Notes under the pieces: model-generated | What the model saw: only the letters and a program-made list of their open reading frames with translations | Told to the model about the DNA's origin: nothing | Databases searched by the model: none | Assembly (NCBI GenBank): GCA_003345595.1 | Contig: PRDI01000127.1 | Location: 1 to 14,987 of the forward strand | DNA from: Candidatus Thorarchaeota archaeon | Lineage (GTDB): Archaea; Asgardarchaeota; Thorarchaeia; Thorarchaeales; Thorarchaeaceae | Length of the DNA stretch: 14,987 bases | Direction of reading: 5' to 3' | Made by a program: the position numbers and the translations under genes | In this document: piece after piece, positions 1 to 14,410 of the stretch | Numbering within the stretch: position 1 is the stretch's first letter | How the letters are laid out: each line of letters opens with the position of its first letter

Positions 1-474
1 CCCGTGTCCAAAAAGAGGACCTGGGAAGTCTGTGACATAACGGCTGTCACCGTGAAAGAGGATCTGAAACCATTCTCGCACAGTGTTGAGGTGCGTGTCA
101 TTGGCAATACGGTCTGCCCTCATTGCATGGCAAACAACGATGGCATGACGCACATGCAGAGAGCTTTGGGTGTTCTGCGTGTGGTTGGAGCAACTAGCGA
201 CATTCCAAACTACGGCGATATGATTGACGTCATCGAGAGGTCGTTCTCAAGCCGGACGTACTCATTGCTCAAGATCGAGGATGAGGTCTACGTGACGAAG
301 CAGATGCATGAGAATCCCCAGTTTGTGGAAGACGTGTGTAGAAACATACTGCAGAATGCAAAGGAGGCCTTCAAGGACAGGAATCTCGAGATGTATGCAG
401 AGGCAACGTCTCTAGAGAGCATTCACAAGCATGATGTCATTGCCCAAGGCCGTCTAGTGACCAATGGTCAATAG
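1..474 (+). CDS. mptA: GTP cyclohydrolase, FolE2/MptA family (GTP cyclohydrolase IB/IV); 5'-truncated by the window edge
   Basis: Frame 1 is open from base 1 to TAG at 472-474. It carries FolE2/MptA motifs in the expected order: TVCPHC, THMQR, SSRTYSLLKIEDE, HENPQFVED, ESIHKHD. The GTG at 4 is probably internal. Confidence 0.9.
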   Translation, partial: PVSKKRTWEVCDITAVTVKEDLKPFSHSVEVRVIGNTVCPHCMANNDGMTHMQRALGVLRVVGATSDIPNYGDMIDVIERSFSSRTYSLLKIEDEVYVTKQMHENPQFVEDVCRNILQNAKEAFKDRNLEMYAEATSLESIHKHDVIAQGRLVTNGQ

Positions 475-708: not shown

Positions 709-3700
709 ATGTCGCGCATCGCCTTTGCAGTGCTAGTCTTAGCTACGATGTGTTTCGCCCAGATGGCAGGGATTGATCTGGTGATCTGGCGCAGCCAGGG
801 AGGGGAATACTGGGGTGGAGATGAGTACTCTGTGAACCAGGACTCACAGAGGCCCAACGAGGGTTCAATCGAAGAGGAGGTCAACTCGGAGGTCCCGATT
901 TCTGCGACCAAGACTCAGTTCGTGCGGGCCGAAGAGCAGATCTCCGGGGTGCTGCAGCCAGTGACCATTGAACAGAGGGGCTATGATTCATCCGGGAATC
1001 TGAGTGCCCGCACTGACACACGAGAAGGAATGAGTACAGATCTGTCAATTGACGCTCTTCATGGCTGGAAAGGGAGCTTGGCGGAGGTGAACGTGTCCGG
1101 TCTCCAGAGGCTCTATGTTGTGAATGGTTCGTTCAACTCTGGCACACCTGGTTCGAACGTGAATCCGAATGGCTCCGTTACATATCACCCTACTAATTGG
1201 GATGCGATCAGTTATTCGGCTGACATTAGCAACCTCGAAGCCCAAGTGGCTACGTACGATTCCAGTGGTTCTCGATTCATTTCCGTTCAAAACCAGGGCA
1301 AATCTCTAGGCTCTACATCCTACAAGCATTTTGCAGGGTCTTACATATTATGGACTCAAACTGTGACTAATGTTCCTAAGACCACTCAGTTCACTCTTAG
1401 GTTCAGTTACCTCTATCTTACAGGACCAATTGGTCTGGGTGTACCCGGTGCATGCCGACTGACTGTTTACCTGAATCAAACCAGAATATGGAATCAGAGC
1501 CTTGCAGCCCTTGGCGAGAGGGGTGTTTGGTACAGCACTGGTTCGGTACTTGTAGACAAGCCAACCATAGGCAACGTGTTTGACTTCAAGGTCGGCATCG
1601 TGATTGACAGCGACATGACGCTCAGTACCACTGCTAACTACACCGGCAGTTACATCAACGCCGCGTACATCACCGTTAACATCGAGGATGTGCTTCTTAT
1701 CAGCGCCGCTCCACCATCCTTCGGTTCGGTGGCACTGCAGTTCAAGGCTGGCAGCACGACCGTTGCTGTAACGGGTTCATCGGGAATCGGCTACGCCCGC
1801 ATTGTGAACTCCAGCTATTGGACATCTAGCTCGCTGACCGTTGGTCTGCAATCAAACATCAGTGTATCCTTCTACTACACAGCTCGTGTTCTTTGTCTTC
1901 ACTTTGGGAACTCGAGTTGGACGAGTGATGTAACCAAGACAGGGGTCGCGTATGATGCCCACCTCTGGTCAAGCTCTGATTTGAGTCTCTTGACATACCT
2001 CGGGTCGCTTGGCAGCTATGAGCAGTTCTCTCTTCGCATCACGACTCCTTGGGATTGGGCAAACGCGACAGTCCTTGATCCATTCTCTGCAGATGTCACC
2101 GCGCAATGCTCGATAGGCCCTGGGCTAGTGACTGTTCCTCAGAGCGTTCTTAGCCTCCTTGGATGGTGGCAGGTGACACTTCAGGCACCAAACTACTTGA
2201 AGGCAGTTGTAACTCAGAAGTACAATTCGCAAAGCAGTTCCTGGTCGAATGAGAGTTCATTCAGGTCGGATAATGTGACAAGGGCGCTTGTCAACATAGG
2301 AACGCAAGAATCAGTTCCAGAGGACCTGTCGAATGTAAATGCCACATGGGTACTTCCTAACGGGAGCGTGTGGGCAGACGAGTCTCTCAGTGGAGGGGCG
2401 TCAGGTTGGATAAGCAGCAGTTCACATGTCATTGACAGTTCGGCGGCGGGCTCGTGGTCGGTGATAGTTTCTTGGAGCAATGGCTCTGAAATCGCGTACG
2501 GTAATGTCCTCCTGGGTGTCTACCACAGAGCAACTCTGTTTGCAGTTTACGACGAGATTGAAACCGATGCTGGTCTTGTGATAACGAGTCTTGTCAGGTT
2601 GACTGACTCCGAAACCGGTCGATACCTGATGGATGACTCGGTTTCAGTCGTTGGCAATTGGTCTGGCGCCGACACTGTTTTCCTGCCCAACGTGGGAAAG
2701 AACTGGTGGGAAGGCAGCTTTGACACATCACTCGTCGAGCCTGGCTTGTATGTAGTTAGAGTCAACGCATCGCGACCATACTATGATGGCTCCTACTGCC
2801 TCTTTGTCATTAGGTCAACAGCTGAAACGCGGTTGGCGTCGCCAAACTCGCCGTGGTCCAGCTGTGCTTGGAACTCGACATTGCAGCTCACGTTCGCATA
2901 CGAAGTGCTTGACTTTGAATCACATGTGTGGATACCCGTGACGAACTCATCAGGTGATGTACACGCTGGTCTCAACTGGACTGCTGGACATTGGTCGGTA
3001 TCACGGAACGAAACCCTTGGAGTCTATGTGTTCATCGTAGACACAGGGAGTCAGCCATCAGGCAACTGGCTATTGAACTTCACATTCACCAAGCCGGCTC
3101 ATCAGCCACAACAGCTGCTCATCATGCTTCTGGTGTCCCCAGTCGTTACAACACTCACGTTCGATTGCCCGACATCCGGGCGAGTCGACATCAATCAGGA
3201 GCACTCAATGAAAATCATGTATGCCGACAGTAACGGGGTTCCAATAGGGTCGGCAAACGTGACTGTTGATGACGTTTCTCCTGCAGAGGGACTTCAGTTC
3301 TCCCCGATTGCGGAAATTCCATCCGAACCTGGAAACTACACCGTGACACTGACACCGAGATCTCCTGGCCTTTATACAGTCAGATTCCTTGCTACTAAGA
3401 GTGAACGGCAATCTGCAACTTCCATCTTCGTGCTACTGGTCAATGACGTTGCCGCCTCTCTCAGCATCATGACTGGCCACAGCGCCGTGATTGATTTCAC
3501 CGATGTCTACACGGCCGCGTTCCGCCACGAGATGCTGAATGGCTCGGGTATTGAAGGTGCCCTGATAGACATTGTCTTCTCAGGTCCTAGTGGGGGCCTC
3601 GAGTGGTCGGCTCCTCTGCAGACTGGTGTTGGCAACTACAGTGTGGAGTTCAGCCCAACCACTCCGGGAACCTATCTGGTGACCATTGCAGCGTCAATGC

Positions 3701-6342
3701 CATACTACCAGAGCAGCTCTGACTCGTTCTTCCTGATCGTGAACGACATTGCCACCTCTCTCGACATCATCACTGGCGGCAGTGCCGTAATTGGTTTCAC
3801 GGACGTCTACACGGCCGTGTTCCACTACGAGATGCTGAATGGCTCAGGTATTGAAGACGCTCTGATAGACATCGTCTTTTCGGGCCCTACTGGAGGTCTC
3901 GAGTGGTCTGCTCCTCTGCAGACCGGCGTGGGCAACTACAGTGTGGAGTTCAGCCCATCCACTTCGGGAACCTATCTCGTGACCATTGCGGCGTCGATGC
4001 CATACTACCAGAGCAGCTCTGATTCATTCTTTCTGTTTGTCGGTGAAATATCTTCTGGGCTGGCGTCTGTCAACGGCACGGCGGCCTCTATTCTGTACGG
4101 TCAGAGCTACAGGCTTGTTGTCCGCTATACCAACTCTTCGGGCTCTGGCCTGGATGGTGCAGATGTGGGGGTGGAGTCAATCAGTCCTGTTGGTGCTCTG
4201 GAAGTTTCTGCAGTTGAGCCTCTGGGGCAGGGCAACTATTCTATTGTTCTCAGCCCCACACAGACAAAGACCGTTTCCGTTCTGATTAGTGCCAGTTTCC
4301 TGAACCATCAGACAGGATTTGCCACCTTCACTCTCACGACCTTGCCGATACCTGCCTTCCTCTCAGTAGCAGACTCCACGGCTGTGACCTCAATCGACTG
4401 CAACTTTACTCTGTATATGGGTTTGAGGACCGACAACTTGGTGCCGCTGGCTGGAGCTGCCATCACTGTCCAAAACCCCCCAGTTGGAGTCGCTTTCGTG
4501 GCCCCAGTTGATTTGGGCAATGGCCTTTATGCACTAACGATGGTCCCCGTCAGTATTGGAGCATATGACATGCTCTTCAGAGCCACCCTTCCTAACTATC
4601 AGAATGCAACTGCTGCATTCACTCTGAACATCGTCAAGGTTCCCACAACTCTTCGCATTGCAGGTGGTCTTTCATATGCGGCAGTGCGGTTCGGAAACGC
4701 CTATGCACTCCGTGTGATGTATGAGCGGGCAGACATGATGCAAAACATCACCGATGCAACAATCGGTGTGTATCTATCCCCGGAGGAGGGTCTCACATGG
4801 ACCGTTCAACATCTCGATGGCTACTATAGCGTCGGGCTTCTGGCCGAATCCTTGGGCAGATGGACAATCACGGTTTCTGCTGAGAGAGAGAACCACACCC
4901 CAGCATCAGTTCAGTTCGTACTTGATATCATCACCATCAGTACGACACTGGATGCTGCGGCACATCCAGGAACTGTAAACTACAGCAGGCCATTCCTATT
5001 CACACTCACATACCGCATCCTAGACAATCAAAGCGGTGTTTCTGGAGCGAGCCCCCTTGCTTCAGGTGATGGCTCCGACTGGATTTCGATTCATGATTTG
5101 GGAAACGGCATCTACAGTGTGAACGTGACACCCTTCGGCCTTGGGGATTTCTCTCCTCTGCTGACTTTCGACAAACCTGGTTACGAATCAAAGCAATACA
5201 GGCTTTCATTCACGGTCGTGAAGATACCTCTGAAGGTTCAGCTCATGAGCAGCTCCTTTGCCACTGAGGGTGTGCCCTTTGACGTCATAGTCAAAGTCAC
5301 AGAAGAAGACACTGGCAGACCTGTTAGTAACGCGTCGGTTTCATTCAGGATCTCTTCAGACCTTACAGGTGATTACCTTTCCATGGCCGAAACCGATCTA
5401 CCCGGTACATACAGCCGCCAATATGTCATGCCTACGTGGGTGGCCCAGACCGGCTATACGCTGGAGATCGCTGTTTCCAAGGACAACTACCAGCTCCGAA
5501 GCGGATTCTCTGCCGCCTTCTTCAAGGATCAGGATTTAGCGGTAAGGATGGCGCCTGTCGTTACCTATACAGGATTCTTAGCTATGGCTGGGCTCGTAAC
5601 GGCTGTTGGCGTCAGAATCTCTAAGAAGCGACAGAGGCGGCGAAATCTCGATGCCTTGAGTGTCAAGAAACGTTTCGATGACGCCGCCAATATCATTGGT
5701 CTGATTGTGTTGCACAAGGTCAGCGGAGTCCCTCTGTATTCCAAGATTCTGAGAGGTGGTTTCGAGGAAGGCATGATCTCAGCTTTCGTTTCAGCAATTA
5801 CCTCCTTCAGGTCTGAATTTGGAATGGATGAAAGTCATATGGAATATCAGGTGATCCCGATCTCAGACATTATCACTGCGGTGGCGACCAGAAACCTGAT
5901 TTGTGCCTTCATGACCGTGTCGGCGCCTTCGGCGTATCAGCAAGTGAAGATGGAGGCATATGCGAGATCCTGTGGTGCCATGTTTGATGACACACTCGGT
6001 GATGTTCGGGCACACGTCGTCGATCAGGAAACTGTGAAGGCGCTCGACTCCCTGTTCTATGAAGTCATGGATGGCAGCCTCTTGGTGCTATACAGGCGGA
6101 GAATGGAAACTGAGTTACCACGACGGCTTAAGAGTCTCCTATTAGCTGTATCATTCATTGAACGGCCAGATGGTTTCTTGCTTAGCGAGCTCGCAAAAGA
6201 GATGACCTCCAGTGGCGTCGAGGAGAGTCAAGCATACAAGCTCATCATGGACGCCATGGACGGCAAAGTGATTGTTAGGGCAGATAACGCTAGTATAGAG
6301 GCTCCGCCGCTTACTGTGGACAAGAGTAAAAGAACATCCTGA
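709..6342 (+). CDS. Giant single-pass membrane glycoprotein A (~1877 aa): signal peptide, CBM-like beta-sandwich, ~10 Ig-like repeats, TM helix, cytoplasmic longin/roadblock-like domain, wHTH-like tail
   Basis: 5.6-kb ORF. ATG at 709 has GAGGT 8 nt upstream and is followed by a signal-like segment (MSRIAFAVLVLATMCFAQ); GTG 688 is an alternative start and TTG 595 is unlikely. Dense N-x-S/T sequons. ~100-aa repeats with G-x-Y-x-V-x-F-x-P-x-x-x-G-x-Y. TM at ~5548-5613 followed by RISKKRQRRR. C-terminal domain begins IIGLIVLHKVSGVPLYS...MISAFVSAITSF. Confidence 0.9.
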   Translation: MSRIAFAVLVLATMCFAQMAGIDLVIWRSQGGEYWGGDEYSVNQDSQRPNEGSIEEEVNSEVPISATKTQFVRAEEQISGVLQPVTIEQRGYDSSGNLSARTDTREGMSTDLSIDALHGWKGSLAEVNVSGLQRLYVVNGSFNSGTPGSNVNPNGSVTYHPTNWDAISYSADISNLEAQVATYDSSGSRFISVQNQGKSLGSTSYKHFAGSYILWTQTVTNVPKTTQFTLRFSYLYLTGPIGLGVPGACRLTVYLNQTRIWNQSLAALGERGVWYSTGSVLVDKPTIGNVFDFKVGIVIDSDMTLSTTANYTGSYINAAYITVNIEDVLLISAAPPSFGSVALQFKAGSTTVAVTGSSGIGYARIVNSSYWTSSSLTVGLQSNISVSFYYTARVLCLHFGNSSWTSDVTKTGVAYDAHLWSSSDLSLLTYLGSLGSYEQFSLRITTPWDWANATVLDPFSADVTAQCSIGPGLVTVPQSVLSLLGWWQVTLQAPNYLKAVVTQKYNSQSSSWSNESSFRSDNVTRALVNIGTQESVPEDLSNVNATWVLPNGSVWADESLSGGASGWISSSSHVIDSSAAGSWSVIVSWSNGSEIAYGNVLLGVYHRATLFAVYDEIETDAGLVITSLVRLTDSETGRYLMDDSVSVVGNWSGADTVFLPNVGKNWWEGSFDTSLVEPGLYVVRVNASRPYYDGSYCLFVIRSTAETRLASPNSPWSSCAWNSTLQLTFAYEVLDFESHVWIPVTNSSGDVHAGLNWTAGHWSVSRNETLGVYVFIVDTGSQPSGNWLLNFTFTKPAHQPQQLLIMLLVSPVVTTLTFDCPTSGRVDINQEHSMKIMYADSNGVPIGSANVTVDDVSPAEGLQFSPIAEIPSEPGNYTVTLTPRSPGLYTVRFLATKSERQSATSIFVLLVNDVAASLSIMTGHSAVIDFTDVYTAAFRHEMLNGSGIEGALIDIVFSGPSGGLEWSAPLQTGVGNYSVEFSPTTPGTYLVTIAASMPYYQSSSDSFFLIVNDIATSLDIITGGSAVIGFTDVYTAVFHYEMLNGSGIEDALIDIVFSGPTGGLEWSAPLQTGVGNYSVEFSPSTSGTYLVTIAASMPYYQSSSDSFFLFVGEISSGLASVNGTAASILYGQSYRLVVRYTNSSGSGLDGADVGVESISPVGALEVSAVEPLGQGNYSIVLSPTQTKTVSVLISASFLNHQTGFATFTLTTLPIPAFLSVADSTAVTSIDCNFTLYMGLRTDNLVPLAGAAITVQNPPVGVAFVAPVDLGNGLYALTMVPVSIGAYDMLFRATLPNYQNATAAFTLNIVKVPTTLRIAGGLSYAAVRFGNAYALRVMYERADMMQNITDATIGVYLSPEEGLTWTVQHLDGYYSVGLLAESLGRWTITVSAERENHTPASVQFVLDIITISTTLDAAAHPGTVNYSRPFLFTLTYRILDNQSGVSGASPLASGDGSDWISIHDLGNGIYSVNVTPFGLGDFSPLLTFDKPGYESKQYRLSFTVVKIPLKVQLMSSSFATEGVPFDVIVKVTEEDTGRPVSNASVSFRISSDLTGDYLSMAETDLPGTYSRQYVMPTWVAQTGYTLEIAVSKDNYQLRSGFSAAFFKDQDLAVRMAPVVTYTGFLAMAGLVTAVGVRISKKRQRRRNLDALSVKKRFDDAANIIGLIVLHKVSGVPLYSKILRGGFEEGMISAFVSAITSFRSEFGMDESHMEYQVIPISDIITAVATRNLICAFMTVSAPSAYQQVKMEAYARSCGAMFDDTLGDVRAHVVDQETVKALDSLFYEVMDGSLLVLYRRRMETELPRRLKSLLLAVSFIERPDGFLLSELAKEMTSSGVEESQAYKLIMDAMDGKVIVRADNASIEAPPLTVDKSKRTS
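3439..4038 (+). repeat. In-frame 300-bp tandem duplication (3439-3738 and 3739-4038) encoding two copies of one 100-aa Ig-like module
   Basis: VNDVAASLSI...SSSDSFFLI versus VNDIATSLDI...SSSDSFFLF, 14 differences in 100 aa by manual alignment. Paralog B has a single copy at 9692-9991. Confidence 0.95.
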
Positions 6343-6461
6343 GGTAGACCACACAAGTCAGATTGGACATGATGTGTTTCCGTGGCCAATCTACCCTTGT
6401 GAAGGTTTTGAGTCCAAGCTATTTGGTGTGAGATACACTTCCTGTGAGCCTCTTTCACAGA

Positions 6462-6715
6462 ATGCCCGAAATCATCGAGAAGTCGTTAGCGAGCAAGGAA
6501 TACTCGTTGCTCAAGGCAGAGGACGAGGCCTATATGACCAGAAACTGCATGAGGCTCCCGATTTCGTGCAAGATGTGTGGAGGAACATACTGCAGAACGC
6601 CAAAGTAGCTACAAAGGACAGGAATCTCGGGATGCACGGGGCGACGGCCACCTTGGAGAGCATTCACAAGCATGATTTCTACGCCCAAGGCTCAGTTGTC
6701 CCCAATCGCAATTGA
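6462..6715 (+). pseudogene. mptA: Frameshifted relic of the 3' end of mptA/folE2 (homologous to 220-474)
   Basis: MPEIIEKSLASKEYSLLKAEDEAYMT / 1-nt deletion near 6537-6541 / KLHEAPDFVQDVWRNILQNAK...LESIHKHDFYAQG aligns with MIDVIERSFSSRTYSLLKIEDEVYVTKQMHENPQFVEDVCRNILQNAK...LESIHKHDVIAQG. Lengths are 254 versus 255 nt and the stop is at the same position. The upstream catalytic region (CPHC, HMQR) is missing. Confidence 0.9.
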
Positions 6716-6958
6716 CCGACCGTCAATTGAGCGAGGCAGTAGACCTGAAGGACGCCTTCCTTTGGTCATGTGTGCGTGTGGAATCCCGCTGTGTGTCTAT
6801 GCTGCTGAATCTGAATCACGGCATGAATGTTCGAATATGACGTTGCATGCTTGGTTCGCCATAGAAACCCTTTTTCTCGTTCGTGTGTCCTCCTGTGGCA
6901 CATTAGAACGGGCTCTACAAGAGTACAGGTTCGCCCGTCTGAGGAAGGTTCACGCCGG

Positions 6959-9900
6959 ATGCAGTGTCGCAGATGTGCCGCGGTTATACTGCTTTTCACA
7001 TGCCTTACACAGCTGGCCGTCGTCGTCGGTGTCCCTACGTGGAACCTGCCTTTGATTTCTTCTGATCCCTTTGGATCAAATCCGGAGAAGGACACAGAAT
7101 ACGATCAGGATGGGGCAACGCCGTCAGAGCCAATCGCCTCTGCTGCTCAGCGTACTTCCCTCGTTCGGAGCTTTTTAGCTGCTGGGGAAGAAACAAGCGG
7201 TACATTGAATCCGGTTCCCGTGGAACAGAGAGGGTACGCTGCGTCTGGAAACCTCTCCGCACGAACGGACACTCGTACGAACATCAATACCAGTCTGGCG
7301 ATTGACCAGGAACACGGATGGGAAGGCAGCCTTGCCGAGGTGCAAGTTTGGAATCTCACAAGGCTCTACGCTGTAAACGGGTCCTTTGACACAGGATCTC
7401 CCGGCTCGAACACGAATCCGAATGGCTCTGTTGCTTACCATCCAAGTAGCTGGGATTCAATCAGTAACAGTACAAACACTGGGCAGACACAAGTATCCTC
7501 GTATGACTCTGGAGCAAACAGTTACACTTCGGTCGAGAATCAGGGGGTAAAGACAGGTTCCAGCGGCAAGCGTTACATCCACTATGCGGGTACTCGTGTA
7601 CTGTGGACCCAGAATGCAGTCAACTTGCCCATGATAACGCAGTTCTATCTTAGCTTCAGATACCTGTATCTCAGAGGCCCCCTTGGTTCTACCACCCCCG
7701 GCGATTGCTCGATTGCCGCGTTTGTGAACAATGCGTCAGTCTGGAGTCTGAAGCTGCCGGATGTCGGCCAGAGGGGTGTTTGGTACAGTACTGGTAGAGT
7801 CCTGCTGAATCTTTCCGCTGTCGGCGCCACATTTACTCTTATGATTGGACTTGTGATAGACGAGGATATGGATTTGAACGCAGACCAGGGCTATGCTGGA
7901 GGTATTGTGAATACCGTCTATATCACTGCATACCTAGACGACATCTTGTTGGCAGGCGCAAATCCTCCTGGTTTCTCGGCAGTATCACTCACCTTCAGTG
8001 CAGGCGCCATGACCGCCTCCATATCCGGGAGTTCTGGCTCGGGAAGTGCAAGCATCTCAAACCCAGCGTACTGGACCGCAGACCCTCTGACGGTCGGAAT
8101 AACGTCGAACACGAGCGTTTCATTTGACTATGAAGCGCGGCTTTTGTCACACTATGTCAGCAACTCAACTTGGAGCACAGACATTGGCAAAGTAGGTGTG
8201 TCCTATGAAACGAACCTGTGGTCAAGTGTAGACGTTTCTCTGTTCACCTATCTTGGGTCACTCGGCAACTACGAGGACTTCCTCATCTCATTGACTGTGC
8301 CCTTAGACTGGGACAACGTGACTGTATACGATCCGTTCCTGGTCAACGTGACAGGGCAGTGTTTGGTGACATCGGGCCAAGTGGTCGTGCCGCAGGGTGT
8401 TCTTTCTCGCCTTGGATGGTGGCAATTGAGATTCCAAGCACCCAACTACTTGAACGCCGTCGTGACTCAGAAGTACGATTCACAGAGCGGTTCTTGGTCG
8501 AATGAGAGTGTATTCAGGCCGGCGAATGAAACAAGGGCGCTTCTCCACATAGGAACGCAAGAATCAGTCCCAGAGGACCTGTCGAATGGAAGTGTCACAT
8601 GGATACTTCCTAACGGGAGCGTGTGGGCAGACTGGCCATTCAGTGGAGGGGCGTCAGGTTGGATAAACACCAGTTCATATGTCATTGACAGCTCGGCGGC
8701 GGGCTCGTGGTCGGTAGTGGTTTTTTGGATCAACGGCTCTGAAGTCGCATATGGTGATGCTCCTCTCGATGTCTACCACGGAGCGACGCTGTCGGCTGTG
8801 TATCAGGAGATTGAAACCGATGCGGGTTTCGCTGTTACGAATCTCGTCAGGTTCGTTGACTCCGAGAATGGGCGGTACCTGATGGATGACTTTGTGACAA
8901 TCGTTGGCAATTGGTCCGGTGCCGACACGGCATTCTCTCCCAACTTGGTGAAGAACTGGTGGGAGGGGATCTTTGATACCTCTCTCGTTGAGCCCGGCAC
9001 GTATGTTGTCAGGGTCAACGCATCACGACCGTTCTATGACGAATCGTATTGCCTGTTTGTCATCAGATCGACAGCTGCAACACGGCTGGCTTCGCCGAAC
9101 TCACCATGGACGAGCTGTGCTTGGTACTCGACAATACAGCTGATCTTTAGTTATGAGGTGCTTGATGCTGAAACGCACGTGTGGTCGCCTGTGATGAATT
9201 CAACGGGCGAAGTGCGTGTTGATCTCAACTGGACTCTCGGACGTTGGTCAGTATCTCAGAATGCGACCTCTGGTATCTATGAGTTCATGCTAGACACCGC
9301 AGCCCGGCCCTCTGGCAATTGGCTTCTGAACGTTTCATTCACTAAGCTGAGTCACCAGCCACAGCAGATGTTCCTCATGCTACTTGTGTCTCCAGTAGTC
9401 ACAACACTCACTGTGTATGGGCCAACGTCCGCGCAAGTTGATATCAATCAGGAGCATTCGCTTAAGGTCATATATGCTGACAGCGGCGGGGTTCCGATAG
9501 GCGCGGCAAACGTTACTGTTGATGATGTTTCGCCTCCGGAAGGACTCCAGTTCTCTCCGACTACAGAGGTGCCATCGGAATCTGGAAACTACACGCTATC
9601 GCTAACACCGAAACACCCCGGTGTGTTTACGGTCAGACTTGTCGCCGCCAAAAATGGGTCTCAAACTGCGACTGCCGTCTTCGTACTGGTGGTAAATGAT
9701 ATTGCGAGTACTCTCAGCATTACGACTGGTGATAGTGCCGTGATTGGTTTCACGGACGTTTACACAGCCATGTTCCGCTACGAGATGGTGAATGGTTCGG
9801 GTGTCGAAGACGCCGTGATCGCCATTGTCTTCTCTGGTCCTACTGGAGGTCTCGAATGGTCCGTTCCTGTGCAGACAGGCGCGGGCAACTACAGTGTGGA

Positions 9901-12295
9901 GTTCAGTCCAACCACTTCGGGAACCTACCTTGTGACCATAGCGGCATCGATGCCATACTACACGCGCAGTTCTGACTCGTTCTTCCTGATTGTCAGTGAC
10001 ATATCTTCTGGGCTGGTGTCTGTCAACGGCACTTCGGCCTCTGTTCTGTACGGTCAGAGCTACCGGCTCGTCGTCCGCTACACCAACTCCTCCGGCTCTG
10101 GCCTAGATGATGCAGATGTGGGTTTAGAGTCAGTCAATCCGCCTCGTGCTCTGGAAGACCCTACGGTTGAGCCTCTGGGGCAGGGCAACTACTCAATTGT
10201 CCTAACACCCAAGCAGACAACGACCGCAACCGTTTTGATTAGTGCTAGATTGCCGAACCATCAGACCGCTTTTGTCACGTTTACGCTCACAACAATGGCA
10301 ATACCCTCTTTCCTCACAGTCGCGAACTCTACGGCTGTGACCACAATTGACCGCAGCTTCACGCTTTATCTGAAACTGCAGACCGAGAACAAGGTGGGAC
10401 TGGCGGGTGCTGTGATTGCGATCCAGAGTCCTCCAGCCGAAGTGGGTTTTGTAGATCCAGTGGATATGGGCGATGGTTTCTATGCCTTGACGATGATTCC
10501 GAATGAAATCGGAGCGTTTGACATCCTTTTGAGAGCGAGCCTTCCGAACTATCAAAATGCGTCGGCTGCATTCACGCTGAACATCGTCAGGATTCCTACG
10601 GCTCTTCGAGTTGCAGGTGGTCTTTCGTCTGCAACGGTCGGGTTTGGAGATACATACCCACTCCTCGTGATTTACGAGCGGACCGATATGATGCAGAGCG
10701 TCGCTGATGCTACAGTAGGTGTGCATGTATCCCCAGACGAGGGTCCCACATGGATCATTCAACAACTCAATGACTCCTATATCGTCAGGTTAGTGGCAGC
10801 GTCCTTGGGTAGGTGGACAATCACGATTTCTGCTGAGAAAGAGAACCACACTCAAGCATCAGTTCAGTTCGTACTTGATATCCTAACGATTGACACGGAA
10901 CTAGACGTTGGGGAGTCCTTCAAAACCGCATACTATGGTAGGACATACCAGTTCGTGCTAACATACCGTGTGCTGAGCAACCAGAGCGGCATCCCTTCAG
11001 CGAGCGTCCTCGTTTCGGGTGATGGATCTGACTGGATTTCCATTTATGACTTAGGAAATGGCAGCTACCGTGTGAATGTGACGCCTGTCGGCCTTGGGGA
11101 CTTCTCTCCTCTGCTGACTTTCGACAAACTTGGCTACGAATCCAAGGAGTCCAGACTTTCGTTCACAGTCGTGAGCATACCTCTGAAGGTTCAGGTCCTG
11201 AGTGGCCTATATGCCATTGAGGGTGTGCCCTTTGATGTCATAGTCAAGGTCACGGAGGAAGATACTGACACGCCCGTCAGTGGTGCCGCGGTTTCCTTCA
11301 GAATCTCCTCAGATCATGCAGGTGATTTTCTTCCCATGGTTGAAACTGAAACACCTGGCATATATAGCCGCCAATTCGTGATGTCGCTGTGGGTGGACCA
11401 GACAACCTATACACTGGAGATTGTTGTCATGAAGGACACCTATGAGCTCGATGGTGGGTTCTCCACCACCTTTCTCAAGGAACCGGACTTCACCGCTAGG
11501 ATGACACCTGTGGTTGCCACTACCGGGTCATTGGCTCTTGTGGTGCTCATATCGGCGTTCGGCCTTAGAGTCATCAGAAAACGGCGAAGGCAGCGCAATA
11601 TAGATGCCCTTAGTGTCAAGAAACGCTTCGATGACATCTCCAATATACTTGGCATAATCGTATTGCACAAGGTCAGTGGGGTCCCCGTGTACTCCAAGAT
11701 CCTGAGAGGTGGTTTCGAGGAGGGCGTGATTTCGGCTTTCATTTCCGCCATCACTCACTTCAGGTCGGAGTTCGGAATGGATGAGAGTCACTGGGAGTAC
11801 GAAGTGATCCCAATCTCAGACATAATCAGCGCCGTCGCGACCAGGAACCTGATTTGTGCCTTTCTGACTGTCGCAGCACCATCAGTAGCTCAGCAGGTAA
11901 AGATGGAGGCGTATGCGAGGTCTTGTGGCGCTATGTTTGATGACTTGCTTGGAAACGTTCAGGGGCAGGCTCTCGATGAGGAAACCGTGAAGGCGCTCGA
12001 CTCCCTGTTCTATGACCTCATGGATGGCGACCTCTTGGCTCTATACAAGCGGAGATGGGAGGCTGCGTTGCCACGACGGTTGAAGTGTCTTCAGGCAACT
12101 GCATCCTTCATTGAGAGACCGGATGGCTTCTTGCTTGGCGAACTGGCGAAGGGGATGACTTCCTGTGGGATTGAAGAGAGCTATGCATACAAGCTCATCT
12201 TAGAGGCAATACAGAACCAATTCCTCGTCAAGGCGGAAAGAGCAAACGAGGCGGCTAGCACCCAGCTTGTGGATGGGAAAACAGAATCATCCTGA
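6959..12295 (+). CDS. Giant single-pass membrane glycoprotein B (~1778 aa), paralog of A with the same architecture and one fewer Ig-like module
   Basis: 5.3-kb ORF collinear with protein A. ATG at 6959 has GAGGAAGG upstream (6941-6948) and is followed by MQCRRCAAVILLFTCLTQLAVVVGV. TM at ~11501-11566 followed by RVIRKRRRQR. C-terminal domain begins ILGIIVLHKVSGVPVYS...VISAFISAITHF. Confidence 0.9.
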   Translation: MQCRRCAAVILLFTCLTQLAVVVGVPTWNLPLISSDPFGSNPEKDTEYDQDGATPSEPIASAAQRTSLVRSFLAAGEETSGTLNPVPVEQRGYAASGNLSARTDTRTNINTSLAIDQEHGWEGSLAEVQVWNLTRLYAVNGSFDTGSPGSNTNPNGSVAYHPSSWDSISNSTNTGQTQVSSYDSGANSYTSVENQGVKTGSSGKRYIHYAGTRVLWTQNAVNLPMITQFYLSFRYLYLRGPLGSTTPGDCSIAAFVNNASVWSLKLPDVGQRGVWYSTGRVLLNLSAVGATFTLMIGLVIDEDMDLNADQGYAGGIVNTVYITAYLDDILLAGANPPGFSAVSLTFSAGAMTASISGSSGSGSASISNPAYWTADPLTVGITSNTSVSFDYEARLLSHYVSNSTWSTDIGKVGVSYETNLWSSVDVSLFTYLGSLGNYEDFLISLTVPLDWDNVTVYDPFLVNVTGQCLVTSGQVVVPQGVLSRLGWWQLRFQAPNYLNAVVTQKYDSQSGSWSNESVFRPANETRALLHIGTQESVPEDLSNGSVTWILPNGSVWADWPFSGGASGWINTSSYVIDSSAAGSWSVVVFWINGSEVAYGDAPLDVYHGATLSAVYQEIETDAGFAVTNLVRFVDSENGRYLMDDFVTIVGNWSGADTAFSPNLVKNWWEGIFDTSLVEPGTYVVRVNASRPFYDESYCLFVIRSTAATRLASPNSPWTSCAWYSTIQLIFSYEVLDAETHVWSPVMNSTGEVRVDLNWTLGRWSVSQNATSGIYEFMLDTAARPSGNWLLNVSFTKLSHQPQQMFLMLLVSPVVTTLTVYGPTSAQVDINQEHSLKVIYADSGGVPIGAANVTVDDVSPPEGLQFSPTTEVPSESGNYTLSLTPKHPGVFTVRLVAAKNGSQTATAVFVLVVNDIASTLSITTGDSAVIGFTDVYTAMFRYEMVNGSGVEDAVIAIVFSGPTGGLEWSVPVQTGAGNYSVEFSPTTSGTYLVTIAASMPYYTRSSDSFFLIVSDISSGLVSVNGTSASVLYGQSYRLVVRYTNSSGSGLDDADVGLESVNPPRALEDPTVEPLGQGNYSIVLTPKQTTTATVLISARLPNHQTAFVTFTLTTMAIPSFLTVANSTAVTTIDRSFTLYLKLQTENKVGLAGAVIAIQSPPAEVGFVDPVDMGDGFYALTMIPNEIGAFDILLRASLPNYQNASAAFTLNIVRIPTALRVAGGLSSATVGFGDTYPLLVIYERTDMMQSVADATVGVHVSPDEGPTWIIQQLNDSYIVRLVAASLGRWTITISAEKENHTQASVQFVLDILTIDTELDVGESFKTAYYGRTYQFVLTYRVLSNQSGIPSASVLVSGDGSDWISIYDLGNGSYRVNVTPVGLGDFSPLLTFDKLGYESKESRLSFTVVSIPLKVQVLSGLYAIEGVPFDVIVKVTEEDTDTPVSGAAVSFRISSDHAGDFLPMVETETPGIYSRQFVMSLWVDQTTYTLEIVVMKDTYELDGGFSTTFLKEPDFTARMTPVVATTGSLALVVLISAFGLRVIRKRRRQRNIDALSVKKRFDDISNILGIIVLHKVSGVPVYSKILRGGFEEGVISAFISAITHFRSEFGMDESHWEYEVIPISDIISAVATRNLICAFLTVAAPSVAQQVKMEAYARSCGAMFDDLLGNVQGQALDEETVKALDSLFYDLMDGDLLALYKRRWEAALPRRLKCLQATASFIERPDGFLLGELAKGMTSCGIEESYAYKLILEAIQNQFLVKAERANEAASTQLVDGKTESS

Positions 12296-12604
12296 AGTGC
12301 ACCACTCATCTTCTGCTGGGTAGTGCAGCCTGCCGACATACTGCATCTTGTCACTGGCATCGGGCTTTGGTCTTCGAGATCGGGTTCGCGTCCACTCCGC
12401 CTCTGCATTCACCGGACCGAAGTCGTTCATTCCTGTGACAGCGTTTTCCTACCCTGTCCCCTCTCCTTCTAGTGGACCGACTCTTGAGTGCACTTGAGTC
12501 GCGTGCGTAGATGCTCTCAGGAGGCCTAGCCACGAGGGTCATACTCACATGGTCCGGACGTGATACTATGGTATTACCTTAGTATCTTGTATGTTGTATC
12601 AAGC

Positions 12605-12611
12605 TTTAATA
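12605..12611 (+). promoter_or_regulatory. Candidate archaeal TATA box (TTTAATA) upstream of the small ORF
   Basis: TTTAATA lies in a locally AT-rich stretch, ~65 nt upstream of ATG 12676. It could also read as TATTAAA on the minus strand. Confidence 0.35.
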
Positions 12612-12675
12612 GCAACGCAGAGGAAGTAGAGGGTAGTTGTACCGCGCAGTTCGGATATGAACGGAGACACGAATC

Positions 12676-12828
12676 ATGGCCCACAACATACGCACCAAGA
12701 CAAGACCCGCGTCGACTCTGCAGAGAAACGCGCAGGTTCTGCACGTTCTATACGGACTCCTTGACAGCGACAAGGAACCCACTGATGCCGACGCAGAGAA
12801 GCTCAGATACCTCTATGCGAGTTCCTAG
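12676..12828 (+). CDS. Small hypothetical protein, 50 aa (MAHNIRTKTRPASTLQRNAQVLHVLYGLLDSDKEPTDADAEKLRYLYASS)
   Basis: Translated by hand; it is below the size of the smallest ORF in the track. GGAGA lies 8 nt upstream of the ATG, a TATA-like box lies further upstream, the sequence has a two-amphipathic-helix pattern, and a hairpin follows downstream. Confidence 0.55.
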   Translation: MAHNIRTKTRPASTLQRNAQVLHVLYGLLDSDKEPTDADAEKLRYLYASS

Positions 12829-12905
12829 GCACTTTCACGCTCCTCATTTCATATGAGGCCAGATCGTTGTCTCCATGCGTGCACCTCCCGGCAAGCAAAG
12901 AGACA

Positions 12906-12938
12906 GTGGGGGCAGACTGAAAATCGGTCTGCCCTCAC
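12906..12938 (+). other. 15-bp stem-loop (GTGGGGGCAGACTGA-AAA-TCGGTCTGCCCTCAC); possible terminator, stability element or operator
   Basis: 13 Watson-Crick pairs plus 2 positions that are both G-U on the + strand transcript, with a 3-nt loop. Confidence 0.6.
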
Positions 12939-13099
12939 AAATCCTCTCCTCTAATCGGAAGGAATCAGACATCTCATTCTAGTCCGTTATGGTTAATGCG
13001 TAAGGAAACAATCGTCGCCATGATTGATTCTTAGTGATGTATCTGAATCGCTGGAGATAAGGGCGGGATATGTCAATATGAATAGCCAGATGTTCTACA

Positions 13100-14410
13100 A
13101 TGCTGGAGAAGTATAGGCAGTCAACCCCGACTTCGAATGAGTTGTTCAAACGCGCTCTTCGGTTGTTTGCAGGTGGGGTGAACCACAACATTCGCACATT
13201 TGGACTTGTGCACTCCGGGGCATATCCTCCATTCATGCGTGCTGGCAAGGGCAGTCACGTCTGGGATGTTGATGGCAATGAATATGTTGACTGGTGGATG
13301 GCTCACTACTCGGCCATTCTGGGTCACAGTCATCCGAGAGTCATGAAGGCTATCAGTGCACAGCTGATGAATGGGTGCCACCTCGGAACCCTAAATGAGC
13401 AGCAGGTTGTCTTTGGAGAGAAGCTGCAGGAAGCCATCCCATCTATGGCCAGAATGCGTTTCTGTTCCACAGGAAGTGAGGCTACGATGTACGCAGTCCG
13501 TCTCGCACGCCTTCATACTGGAAAACCTTTGGTCGCAAAAGCGCTGGGTGGCTGGCACGGCGGCAACGACACATTAGCATACCATCTCAAGTACCCGTTC
13601 AACGACGAACCCTTCTATAACGGCGTCTCCTTCGACTTCAATGACCGCGATAGCGTTGACAATATGATCAAGAAGCACGGGAATGATCTGGCCGCGATAA
13701 TCGTTGAACCAGTGCTGGGAGCTGGCGGGGGCATCCCTCCAGAGCCCGGGTTTCTGCCACACCTCAGAGAGATCACCAAAGCACATGACATACTCCTAAT
13801 CTTTGATGAAATCGTAACAGGCTTCCGGCTTCGATATGGGTCAGCTGGAAAGGAGTTGTTCGGCGTTGAGCCGGATCTCACTACGCTTGGCAAGATTGCT
13901 GCAGGCGGTATGCCCCTTGGGGTGTACGGGGGAAGAGAGGATGTAATGTCATTGGCTGCTCCGGGAGCTGAGCGAGGTCGCTGGGTCGGAGGCGGAACGT
14001 TCTCAGCTCATCCTCTGACAATGGCCGCCGGAGCGGCGACTCTGGATCAGCTCCGGTCGATGAGAGGGGAATATGATGCTCTCAACAAGCGTGGGGATCG
14101 ATTTCGGGTCCGCGTCAACGAGGTGTTTGAGAAGATTGGAGTGAATGCTCTCGCAACAGGTTTCGGCTCAATAGTATTCATTCATTGGTTCAAACATAGA
14201 CTTGACAGCCGGCCTCTCACAGGTGGCAACATCGGAGAAGCTCTGAACCACGACCGCTTGGACCTCTTCCAGAGTCTGTTGCTCGAAGAAGGTGTGCTTG
14301 GCTACCATGGCCTAGGCGCAGCGTCGTTTGCACACTCGGACGGGGACATAGAGAAGACCCTCAGGGCCATCGAGACGGTGAGTCGGAAGATGCAGACGAT
14401 TAAAGAGTGA
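13100..14410 (+). CDS. hemL: Class-III PLP-dependent aminotransferase, glutamate-1-semialdehyde 2,1-aminomutase-like
   Basis: Motifs GGVNHNIR, WDVDGNEYVD, ILGHSHP, STGSEATMYAVRLAR, LIFDEIVTGFR, PDLTTLGKIAAGGMP (PLP lysine) and GGTFSAHPL. The family call is secure; the exact substrate is less so. Confidence 0.8.
   Translation: MLEKYRQSTPTSNELFKRALRLFAGGVNHNIRTFGLVHSGAYPPFMRAGKGSHVWDVDGNEYVDWWMAHYSAILGHSHPRVMKAISAQLMNGCHLGTLNEQQVVFGEKLQEAIPSMARMRFCSTGSEATMYAVRLARLHTGKPLVAKALGGWHGGNDTLAYHLKYPFNDEPFYNGVSFDFNDRDSVDNMIKKHGNDLAAIIVEPVLGAGGGIPPEPGFLPHLREITKAHDILLIFDEIVTGFRLRYGSAGKELFGVEPDLTTLGKIAAGGMPLGVYGGREDVMSLAAPGAERGRWVGGGTFSAHPLTMAAGAATLDQLRSMRGEYDALNKRGDRFRVRVNEVFEKIGVNALATGFGSIVFIHWFKHRLDSRPLTGGNIGEALNHDRLDLFQSLLLEEGVLGYHGLGAASFAHSDGDIEKTLRAIETVSRKMQTIKE

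Follow-up and report, generated by a model that had tools for sequence, protein, structure and literature searches.

Giant surface glycoproteins of Thorarchaeota with a predicted cytoplasmic longin–winged-helix tail: a tandem gene pair and its relatives

Introduction

What might a longin domain do at the inner end of a giant protein that appears to lie mostly outside the cell? This question is raised by contig PRDI01000127.1 of a Candidatus Thorarchaeota archaeon (assembly GCA_003345595.1; 2.73 Mb, 83% complete, 52% G+C), which was analysed over its whole 14,987 bp (contig C127, referred to below as the window) and carries two giant genes, A and B, in tandem. Like all genes in the window they are on the + strand, to which the window coordinates given here refer. 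Gene A (709-6342, stop 6340-6342) and its paralogue gene B (6959-12295, stop 12293-12295) are intact open frames that would encode type-I surface glycoproteins of 1877 and 1778 amino acids (aa), respectively. The start codons, ATG 709 and ATG 6959, are those of the public gene calls (P0161 and P0022), and a GAGG-type motif lies 10-15 nt ahead of both (for gene A, GAGGT about 10 nt 5' of the ATG).

Longin and roadblock domains are eukaryotic signature proteins of Asgard archaea and are discussed as small soluble regulators of GTPases. In A and B, a longin would be hard-wired to the inner end of a giant glycoprotein whose outer head resembles ligand-binding domains, at the cell surface, where contact with syntrophic partners is expected; such contact is central to models of eukaryogenesis. 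Asgard longin homologues have been listed for Loki and Odin, not for Thor, with membrane-anchored forms unmentioned (Tran et al., Commun Biol 2024, PMC10933270), and multidomain cytosolic longin proteins have been described in ESCRT surveys (PMC10936438). No published account of a transmembrane (TM)-anchored longin on a giant Asgard surface protein was found among open-access papers and bioRxiv preprints. The head fold, the duplication scar between the two genes, the profile of selection along the domains, the joint occurrence of head and tail, and the homology of the tail to ParA-linked soluble longin–winged-helix (wH) proteins are regarded here as new. From their sequences, A and B appear to be functional members, in tandem, of a family of giant type-I surface glycoproteins that is specific to Asgard archaea, and their anatomy and fold, as set out below, are held with high confidence.

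Membrane anchor and predicted topology

In each protein, the two most hydrophobic 19-mers correspond to an N-terminal signal segment and a single membrane anchor. The signal segment of A (709-780) holds, just after M-S-R, the most hydrophobic 19-mer of the protein (Kyte-Doolittle 2.17) and its TM anchor (5557-5619, aa 1655-1675) the second; the anchor of B (11510-11572, aa 1562-1582 of P0002) scores 2.15; the signal segments of both look cleavable. The anchor is followed by R-I-S-K-K-R-Q-R-R-R in A and by R-V-I-R-K-R-R-R-Q-R in B, with seven K/R within the 11 residues directly after it in both proteins. The ectodomains, of 1592 aa in A and 1492 aa in B, contain 40 and 39 N-x-S/T sequons, compared with a mean of 15 (maximum 30) and 14.5 (maximum 25), respectively, in 1000 composition shuffles. 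This amounts to 2.5-2.6 sequons per 100 aa against 0.56 in the long open reading frames (ORFs) of the genome, and the 240-aa tails hold one sequon in A and none in B. Because the positive-inside rule and the asymmetry of the sequons agree, a type-I layout is supported, in which the large part would lie outside and the C-terminal tail inside the cell.

An earlier note on this DNA, made from the sequence alone, had described both ORFs as carrying a signal segment, a sequon-rich β ectodomain of more than 1500 aa with an Ig-like stalk, one TM helix with a polybasic stop-transfer sequence and an inside C-terminus. The hydropathy, charge and sequon data bear out the signal segments, anchors and orientation, and the repeats and Filamin matches described below bear out the stalk. 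The description of the ectodomain stands as to sequon excess, the all-β head and the length of A; B falls just short of the stated length.

The cytoplasmic tail

The tail was modelled with AlphaFold2 (AF2) from an alignment of 45 family tails, which gave a mean predicted local distance difference test (pLDDT) score of 87.5 and a predicted template modelling score (pTM) of 0.82 over the 240 aa. In A, a juxtamembrane helix (5620-5688, tail residues 2-23) is followed by a predicted longin domain (5689-6087, tail residues 24-156) and by a C-terminal unit (6091-6285, tail residues 158-222). The longin domain shows the order β-β-α-β-β-β-α-α over residues 25-149, with a five-stranded antiparallel sheet (strands 25-32, 38-43, 78-80, 85-89 and 93-99; helices 50-67, 105-122 and 136-149). 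The corresponding longin of B (11642-12040) was placed by its identity to A and by the same hidden Markov model (HMM, positions 2-232), and the C-terminal unit of B (12044-12238) by alignment to A.

The top Foldseek matches of the tail model were all longin or roadblock proteins, with E values of only about 1e-3. Structural comparison in VIA gave Z 11.7 for the TRAPP subunit 7b6d_H (root mean square deviation, rmsd, 2.9; 123 residues aligned), followed by the σ subunit of AP-3 (Z 11.3), sedlin (11.0), the VAMP7 longin (10.8), Synbindin (10.6), Sec22 (10.3), SRX (9.8) and the Lokiarchaeota longin 8yqg_B (9.7). Overall, the matches to solved longins reached Z 9.8-11.7, aligned 110-129 residues and extended from residue 24 to about 155, whereas roadblocks (MglB, LAMTOR and Asgard Roadblock3) matched at Z 7.4-8.8 with 85-99 residues aligned, within residues 20-125 only. 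Since the longin matches span the whole domain at higher Z, the model indicates that the tail is a longin and not a roadblock fold. The tail has its N-terminal juxtamembrane helix plus two C-terminal helices, the second of which the roadblock topology lacks, and Robl_LC7 matched one of the 45 family members, at E 0.043. Neither the two tails nor the 45 members gave an above-cut-off match to Longin, Fuz_longin_1, Sybindin, Sedlin_N or Clat_adaptor_s. The motif SG-x-P-x-YS ... SAF-x-SAI-x-x-F is nearly invariant in the 45 members, and the stretch β1-β2-α1 is the most conserved of the tail. The earlier note had recognized a motif of longin/roadblock type and had predicted a fold of that kind; the motif is present and recurs in soluble longin-like paralogues of the genome, and the AF2 model with its matches to solved longins narrows the prediction to the longin fold. 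A SNARE-like reading was considered and rejected: the membrane-adjacent helix is only about 22 residues long, and the order of TM then longin is the reverse of that in longin SNAREs.

The C-terminal unit of the tail shows the element order H-(E)-H-H-E in the AF2 model (residues 168-220), gives a weak MCM_C match (E about 0.09) and has a best VIA match of Z 8.2 over residues 151-224. Together with its collinearity with the winged helix-turn-helix (wHTH) end of the soluble paralogues described below, this order and these weak matches suggest that the unit is winged-helix-like. It is the least conserved part of the tail, and throughout the family it is acidic (median net charge -4).

Soluble relatives of the tail and the link to ParA/MinD

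An HMM of the tail also finds four soluble proteins of 213-311 aa in the same genome, which share the β1-β2-α1 motif and a wHTH-like end. These longin-wH proteins, about 210-310 aa in length, lack a signal segment and a TM helix. One of them scores 25.8 bits against Pfam Fuz_longin_1 (cut-off 26.1) and also gives weak HTH_47 and TrmB wHTH matches; Fuz_longin_1 represents the first longin of FUZ, MON1 and HPS1. The genes for two of the soluble proteins lie in operons with ATPases of the ParA/MinD superfamily that carry the deviant Walker A motif KGGTGKT. For one pair (C31:8958-10396, L078:2213-3651), 12 of 13 loci, drawn from eight genera, have the ParA gene directly ahead of the gene for the longin-wH protein. 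The other operon (C23:18198-21258, L081:873-3933) also holds a gene for a 442-aa TrmB-like wHTH protein.

When the tail profile was aligned by hhalign to that of the soluble longin-wH orthologues, a match with 95.7% probability (E 8.8e-9) was obtained over 172 collinear columns, which pair tail residues 28-214 with residues 18-199 of the soluble proteins and cover both the longin and the wH, at about 19% identity. By this alignment, the giants carry, tethered to the membrane, a copy of a longin-wH module that in its free forms is a conserved partner of ParA/MinD ATPases. A preprint describes archaeal ParA-wHTH systems, of which some include a profilin-longin-like domain; it proposes an immune role for them and does not mention membrane-anchored giants (Li, Burroughs and Aravind, 10.64898/2026.10.19.760177).

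The module appears to exist in free form outside Thorarchaeota as well, judging from a soluble 303-aa protein of a Heimdallarchaeota metagenome-assembled genome (MAG; L077:7986-8894) that starts with the same longin β1-β2-α1 motif. Another relative in the present genome is a 717-aa cytosolic protein with tetratricopeptide repeats (C50:1477-3627, - strand, L082), which ends in a tail-related longin-like domain (HMM domain E 1e-9).

The ectodomain

In 61 representative homologues, a conserved stretch of about 460 aa behind the signal segment forms the N-terminal part. In A, this conserved head (940-2265; aa 116-557, P0001 numbering) is predicted to be all-β in an AF2 model built from a 54-row alignment (pLDDT 91.1), and it contains a jelly-roll (about 1105-1722) that resembles CBM4, CBM70 and MAM domains in VIA and Foldseek matches. 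Residues 77-282 of the model (A aa about 171-376) matched the carbohydrate-binding module (CBM) CBM70 4d0q_A in VIA at Z 13.7 (rmsd 3.4, 152 residues aligned) and CBM4-2 4bj0_A at Z 12.9, and the best Foldseek E value of the jelly-roll was 1e-6. MAM and Eph ligand-binding domains, reelin repeats and phage fibre tips were also matched, at Z 9-11 (in VIA, 10.7 for the MAM domain of RPTP-μ and 9.8 for the ligand-binding domain of EphA2). Pfam CBM_4_9 gave weak matches (E 6e-4 or weaker) in two of the 54 head sequences, A not being one of them. The modelled fold suggests a ligand-binding, perhaps glycan-binding, role for the head.

The head of A is followed by a middle β-sandwich region (2272-3171, aa 560-859) that is conserved in the family, was found in 70 homologues by phmmer and shows weak Pfam matches to MG2 and DUF2914 as well as two partial matches to the Ig-like repeat. 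The stalk (3172-5496, aa 860-1634) consists of eight tandem Ig-like repeats of about 100 aa, delineated with an iterated HMM (E 1e-19 to 1e-33 for the full repeats of A), and seven full repeats are present in B. Filamin scored 39.2 bits in A and 42.0 bits in B against a Pfam cut-off of 26.9; Big_1 and YtkA also match the stalk, the Filamin and Big_1 Ig-like matches being above or near the Pfam cut-offs. Given typical Ig-domain dimensions, the stalk may extend over a few tens of nanometres.

Divergence of A and B and origin of the pair

A and B are approximately 60-65% identical overall in global alignment, A having one repeat more. The whole tail is 73% identical, and a 100-aa window over the longin reaches 86%, the highest value of all windows. 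According to the method of Nei and Gojobori, the ratio of nonsynonymous to synonymous divergence (dN/dS) is lowest in the longin (0.095) and amounts to 0.21 in the middle region, 0.22 in the wH unit and 0.23 in the Ig stalk, whereas in the head dN is 0.375 and synonymous sites are saturated (pS 0.78). The tail had been singled out earlier as one of the best-conserved parts between the two proteins, with which both the identity window and the dN/dS of the longin agree. Since the head diverges fastest and the longin slowest, the pattern fits a pair that would share the same partner inside and differ in the ligands bound outside. Synonymous divergence is itself uneven, dS being close to 0.73 for both the middle region and the stalk and close to 1.1 for the tail (regions 940-5500 versus 7193-11450), which suggests a mosaic history through gene conversion or exchange of parts between the paralogues.

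Between A and B lies a frameshifted 3' remnant of folE2, the gene for GTP cyclohydrolase I type 2 (6432-6706; tblastn, two pieces in different frames, E 1e-17). It corresponds to roughly the last 90 codons, and its DNA is 75% identical to positions 230-450 of the intact copy, which is the 3' part of folE2 at the start of the window (1-474; Pfam GCHY-1, E 5.9e-33). The ORF at 6374-6715 overlies this remnant and is not a gene. Because this decayed fragment sits between A and B, the sequence shows a pair derived from tandem duplication of a segment that would have run from inside folE2 through the giant gene. In a close relative (L004), whose flanking genes are 91% identical in DNA, folE2 and the aminotransferase gene enclose only one giant gene, 77-83% identical to A and 78% to B; a tandem pair may have collapsed in the assembly of that MAG. 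The giant of this relative (L004:3318-8717) is read as 252 + 1540 aa, with a possible break or alternative start, and is followed by an extra 621-aa ORF that has no counterpart in the window. Tandem pairs occur in 6 of 74 related loci, which were collected in a search seeded with a 13-row tail alignment and in which all ORFs were clustered.

Family and distribution

A HMMER search with the tail over 1.84 billion representative sequences retrieved 135 representative clusters, in which the tail is C-terminal in members of 1100-2300 aa; shorter matches resemble fragments from contig ends. As the earlier note's attribution of the domain to Asgard archaea would lead one to expect, the homologues come almost solely from MAGs labelled Candidatus Thorarchaeota, and those that are named carry only 'hypothetical protein' or comparably generic names. 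A search with the head retrieved 21 proteins, 19 of which carry the tail, the other two being truncated; on this basis, head and tail are coupled in all complete homologues retrieved.

A sample of 400 genomes from the phylum was searched with the tail. Strong matches, at E below 1e-60, occur mainly in the window's own family, all 85 genomes of which match at E <= 1e-5, usually with five to six or more matches each. Weaker matches (1e-8 to 1e-43), which include the soluble longin-wH proteins, occur in nearly all other families, so that 385 of the 400 genomes are represented. Four loci from MAGs of Hermodarchaeota or Promethearchaeota show the full layout of signal segment, 56-79 sequons, TM helix, polybasic stretch and longin, and belong to a distant subfamily.

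The present genome encodes at least four giants, namely A, B and copies on contigs C30 (a 1584-aa frame) and C94. The C94 giant (C94:8676-10298, - strand, equal to L083:3001-4623) is cut by the contig end and retains an Ig-like part, the TM helix and the full longin-wH tail; its C-terminus is extended by about 190 acidic, low-complexity residues that have no equivalent in A or B. The C30 giant (flanks L084:1053-3086 and 7940-9190) has a gene for a eukaryotic-type topoisomerase IB upstream and, 19 bp after it, a gene for a membrane acyltransferase (Acyl_transf_3) that might modify surface glycans.

Relationship to known systems

The tail shares its β-β-α-β-β-β-α-α fold with the eukaryotic longins, among them TRAPPC2/sedlin, TRAPPC1/C4, AP σ, μ-N and ζ-COP, VAMP7/Sec22/Ykt6, the SRX domain of SR-α, and Mon1/Ccz1/Fuzzy, and a cytoplasmic longin close to the membrane is common to the giants, SRX, longin SNAREs and Ragulator-type platforms. 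Unlike in the eukaryotic proteins, the longin of the giants follows the TM helix as a C-terminal tail, is itself followed by a winged helix and has no match to them at sequence level. The eukaryote-like arrangement that the earlier note saw in A and B is retained here as an analogy at the level of the fold and not beyond it, as the nearest soluble relatives of the tail are encoded in operons with ParA/MinD ATPases and not with small GTPases. Asgard roadblock and Roadblock-Longin structures (9jue, 7yh1, 8yqg, 8yqk) belong to the same superfamily and the same phylum as the tail, Asgard roadblocks matching it at Z 7.6-8.7; unlike the giants, they represent small soluble proteins or GTPase fusions. 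The soluble longin-wHTH/ParA systems resemble the tail in the collinear order of longin and wH and in the motif G-(L/I)-P-x-Y-S ... S-x-F-(I/V)-S-A-I-x-x-F, and differ in adjoining a ParA/MinD ATPase gene, whereas the giants have a signal segment and a TM helix and no ParA neighbour.

With respect to the outer part, metazoan single-pass receptors and adhesins with a MAM/CBM-like head and an Ig/FN3 stalk (RPTP-μ, Eph receptors and neuropilin) are built alike: a jelly-roll lies at the distal end, Ig-like domains are arranged in tandem, and a single TM helix leads to a folded domain in the cytoplasm. This is an analogy of layout only, and no homology is claimed apart from shared common folds; inside the cell, the giants carry a longin-wH module instead of a kinase or phosphatase. 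Archaeal S-layer glycoproteins and bacterial adhesins with Big or filamin repeats are, like the giants, large and N-glycosylated, with Ig-like repeats and a C-terminal anchor, but lack a large conserved cytoplasmic module, whereas the giants have such a module, occur as at least four paralogues per genome and show no S-layer match.

Proposed function and alternative explanations

Taken as a whole, these data are probably best explained by a surface glycoprotein with a ligand-binding head and a longin-wH tail that docks a cytoplasmic switch; the receptor and signalling side of this explanation is what we infer from the architecture. The head would bind a ligand outside the cell, a glycan or a partner cell's surface being the likeliest, and the stalk would keep it tens of nanometres off the membrane. 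The tail would form a membrane-tethered docking platform for a nucleotide-dependent switch, which would either be recruited to the engaged receptor or serve to position or cluster the giants in the envelope, and A and B would differ in their outside ligand and share their inside partner. A ParA/MinD-type ATPase is the best candidate class for this switch because the genes for the soluble homologues of the tail share conserved operons with ATPases of this type; next comes a small Ras/Arf/Rag-like GTPase, on the analogy of eukaryotic longins and of Ragulator. The docking mechanism of the tail is put forward tentatively, as a possibility that we would not yet call probable.

It is unlikely, though it has to be taken seriously, that the Thorarchaeota cell coat, in the form of an S-layer substitute or glycocalyx, is instead built mainly from the giants, whose tail would have no part in signalling and would only fasten them to one another or to a scaffold beneath the membrane. 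Very large, sequon-rich ectodomains with Ig-like repeats, presence in all 85 genomes searched of the family and a position among housekeeping genes in conserved synteny would suit a coat protein, and cultured Asgard archaea have been described without an ordered S-layer and with 'complex surface proteins' (PMC9834061). Several divergent paralogues per genome with fast-diverging heads are, however, atypical of a single lattice protein, and a two-domain cytoplasmic module of 240 aa, under the strongest purifying selection in the protein, exceeds what an anchor needs; nor is any known S-layer family matched in Pfam or NCBIfam, in keeping with the earlier note, which had held the proteins to be something other than a plain S-layer protein. 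The narrower idea that the tail is a ParA/MinD cargo adaptor, through which adhesins would be positioned, clustered or coupled to their ligands by a switch of the SIMIBI class, is regarded as doubtful.

Two further explanations concern the partner of the tail. That the longin tails dimerise (A/A, B/B or A/B) to form a platform, guanine nucleotide exchange factor or GTPase-activating protein for a Ras/Arf/Rag-like GTPase, in the manner of Ragulator, TRAPP or Mon1-Ccz1, would be in line with the best fold matches (TRAPP, adaptin σ, SRX, Mon1-Ccz1 and Fuzzy), with the peak of tail conservation at β1-β2-α1, with the soluble paralogue that comes close to the Fuz_longin_1 cut-off (25.8 versus 26.1 bits) and with a genome that has at least 25 matches to the Ras superfamily and no fewer than 12 roadblock genes, including several MglA/MglB-like pairs. 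None of these Ras-family or roadblock genes is near a giant gene, however, no GTPase or roadblock gene was linked to any giant examined, and the closest soluble homologues of the tail are linked to ParA/MinD ATPases instead; this explanation is considered improbable. Prediction of a complex between tail A and tail B (residues 1-228 of each, own alignments, run without controls) gave ipSAE values of 0.02 and 0.00, which weigh neither for nor against dimerisation. Very improbable, in our estimate, is a membrane-tethered regulator, whose wH would bind DNA at the membrane or after proteolytic release, or a sensor arm of a ParA-wHTH system against mobile elements. A wH-like unit does close the tail, its soluble homologues give weak TrmB/HTH_47 wHTH matches, and ParA-wHTH systems have been read as immunity (10.64898/2026.10.19.760177); yet conservation within the tail is lowest in the wH, the giants are inherited vertically in housekeeping synteny and not in defence islands, and no effector genes are found nearby. 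The median net charge of the wH across the family, unusual for a DNA-binding wHTH, argues against DNA binding, and a membrane-tethered DNA-binding regulator was rejected on this ground.

Several points weigh against the preferred reading of a ligand-binding surface glycoprotein with a switch-docking tail. The topology rests on hydropathy, charge and sequons, and the tail, whether searched as single sequences or as a 45-row profile, has no sequence-level match in Pfam, NCBIfam or PDB. CBM-like jelly-rolls are common scaffolds, and likeness of fold alone is no proof of sugar binding. The link to ParA goes through distant paralogues, at 19% identity in hhalign; no ParA/MinD, GTPase or roadblock gene is linked to the giants in the 74 related loci, and no ParA, GTPase or roadblock gene stands beside the C30, C94 and L073 giants, the neighbours of the giants being the housekeeping genes folE2, PTPS, MetRS, topoisomerase IB and RadA. 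The gene surroundings of the distant subfamily gave no lead to a partner either. The binding partner of the tail is at the level of a candidate.

Should the tail of these glycoproteins indeed dock a nucleotide switch, it would physically and directly connect the surface of the Asgard cell with longin-based regulators. If the switch were of the ParA/MinD class, with the tail as its adaptor, this would amount to a prokaryotic circuit of receptor, adaptor and switch, in which the same longin part was used that was later paired with small GTPases in eukaryotic trafficking. The homology to the ParA-linked soluble longin-wH proteins yields a testable hypothesis for the partner, and the family offers concrete candidates for the unexplained 'complex surface proteins' on cultured Asgard cells.

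Gene context and additional observations

The recurrent neighbours of the giant genes reflect conserved housekeeping synteny and comprise folE2, PTPS, MetRS, PEMT-like, AlkZ-like and DNA ligase genes; folE2 is the same-strand upstream neighbour in 17 related loci of this orthologue group. A convergent gene for a multi-TM protein is the recurrent downstream neighbour, in 20 related loci, and sits on contig C129 in the present genome. Downstream of B, the window holds a gene for a class-III aminotransferase (13100-14410) and, at its downstream end, the start of a radical-SAM gene. An Rfam scan of the whole window returned zero matches. The region of about 800 bp 3' of B (12296-13099) contains no convincing ORF and no remnant of the downstream multi-TM gene, and its first 650 bp or so are 78% identical to the single-copy relative L004.

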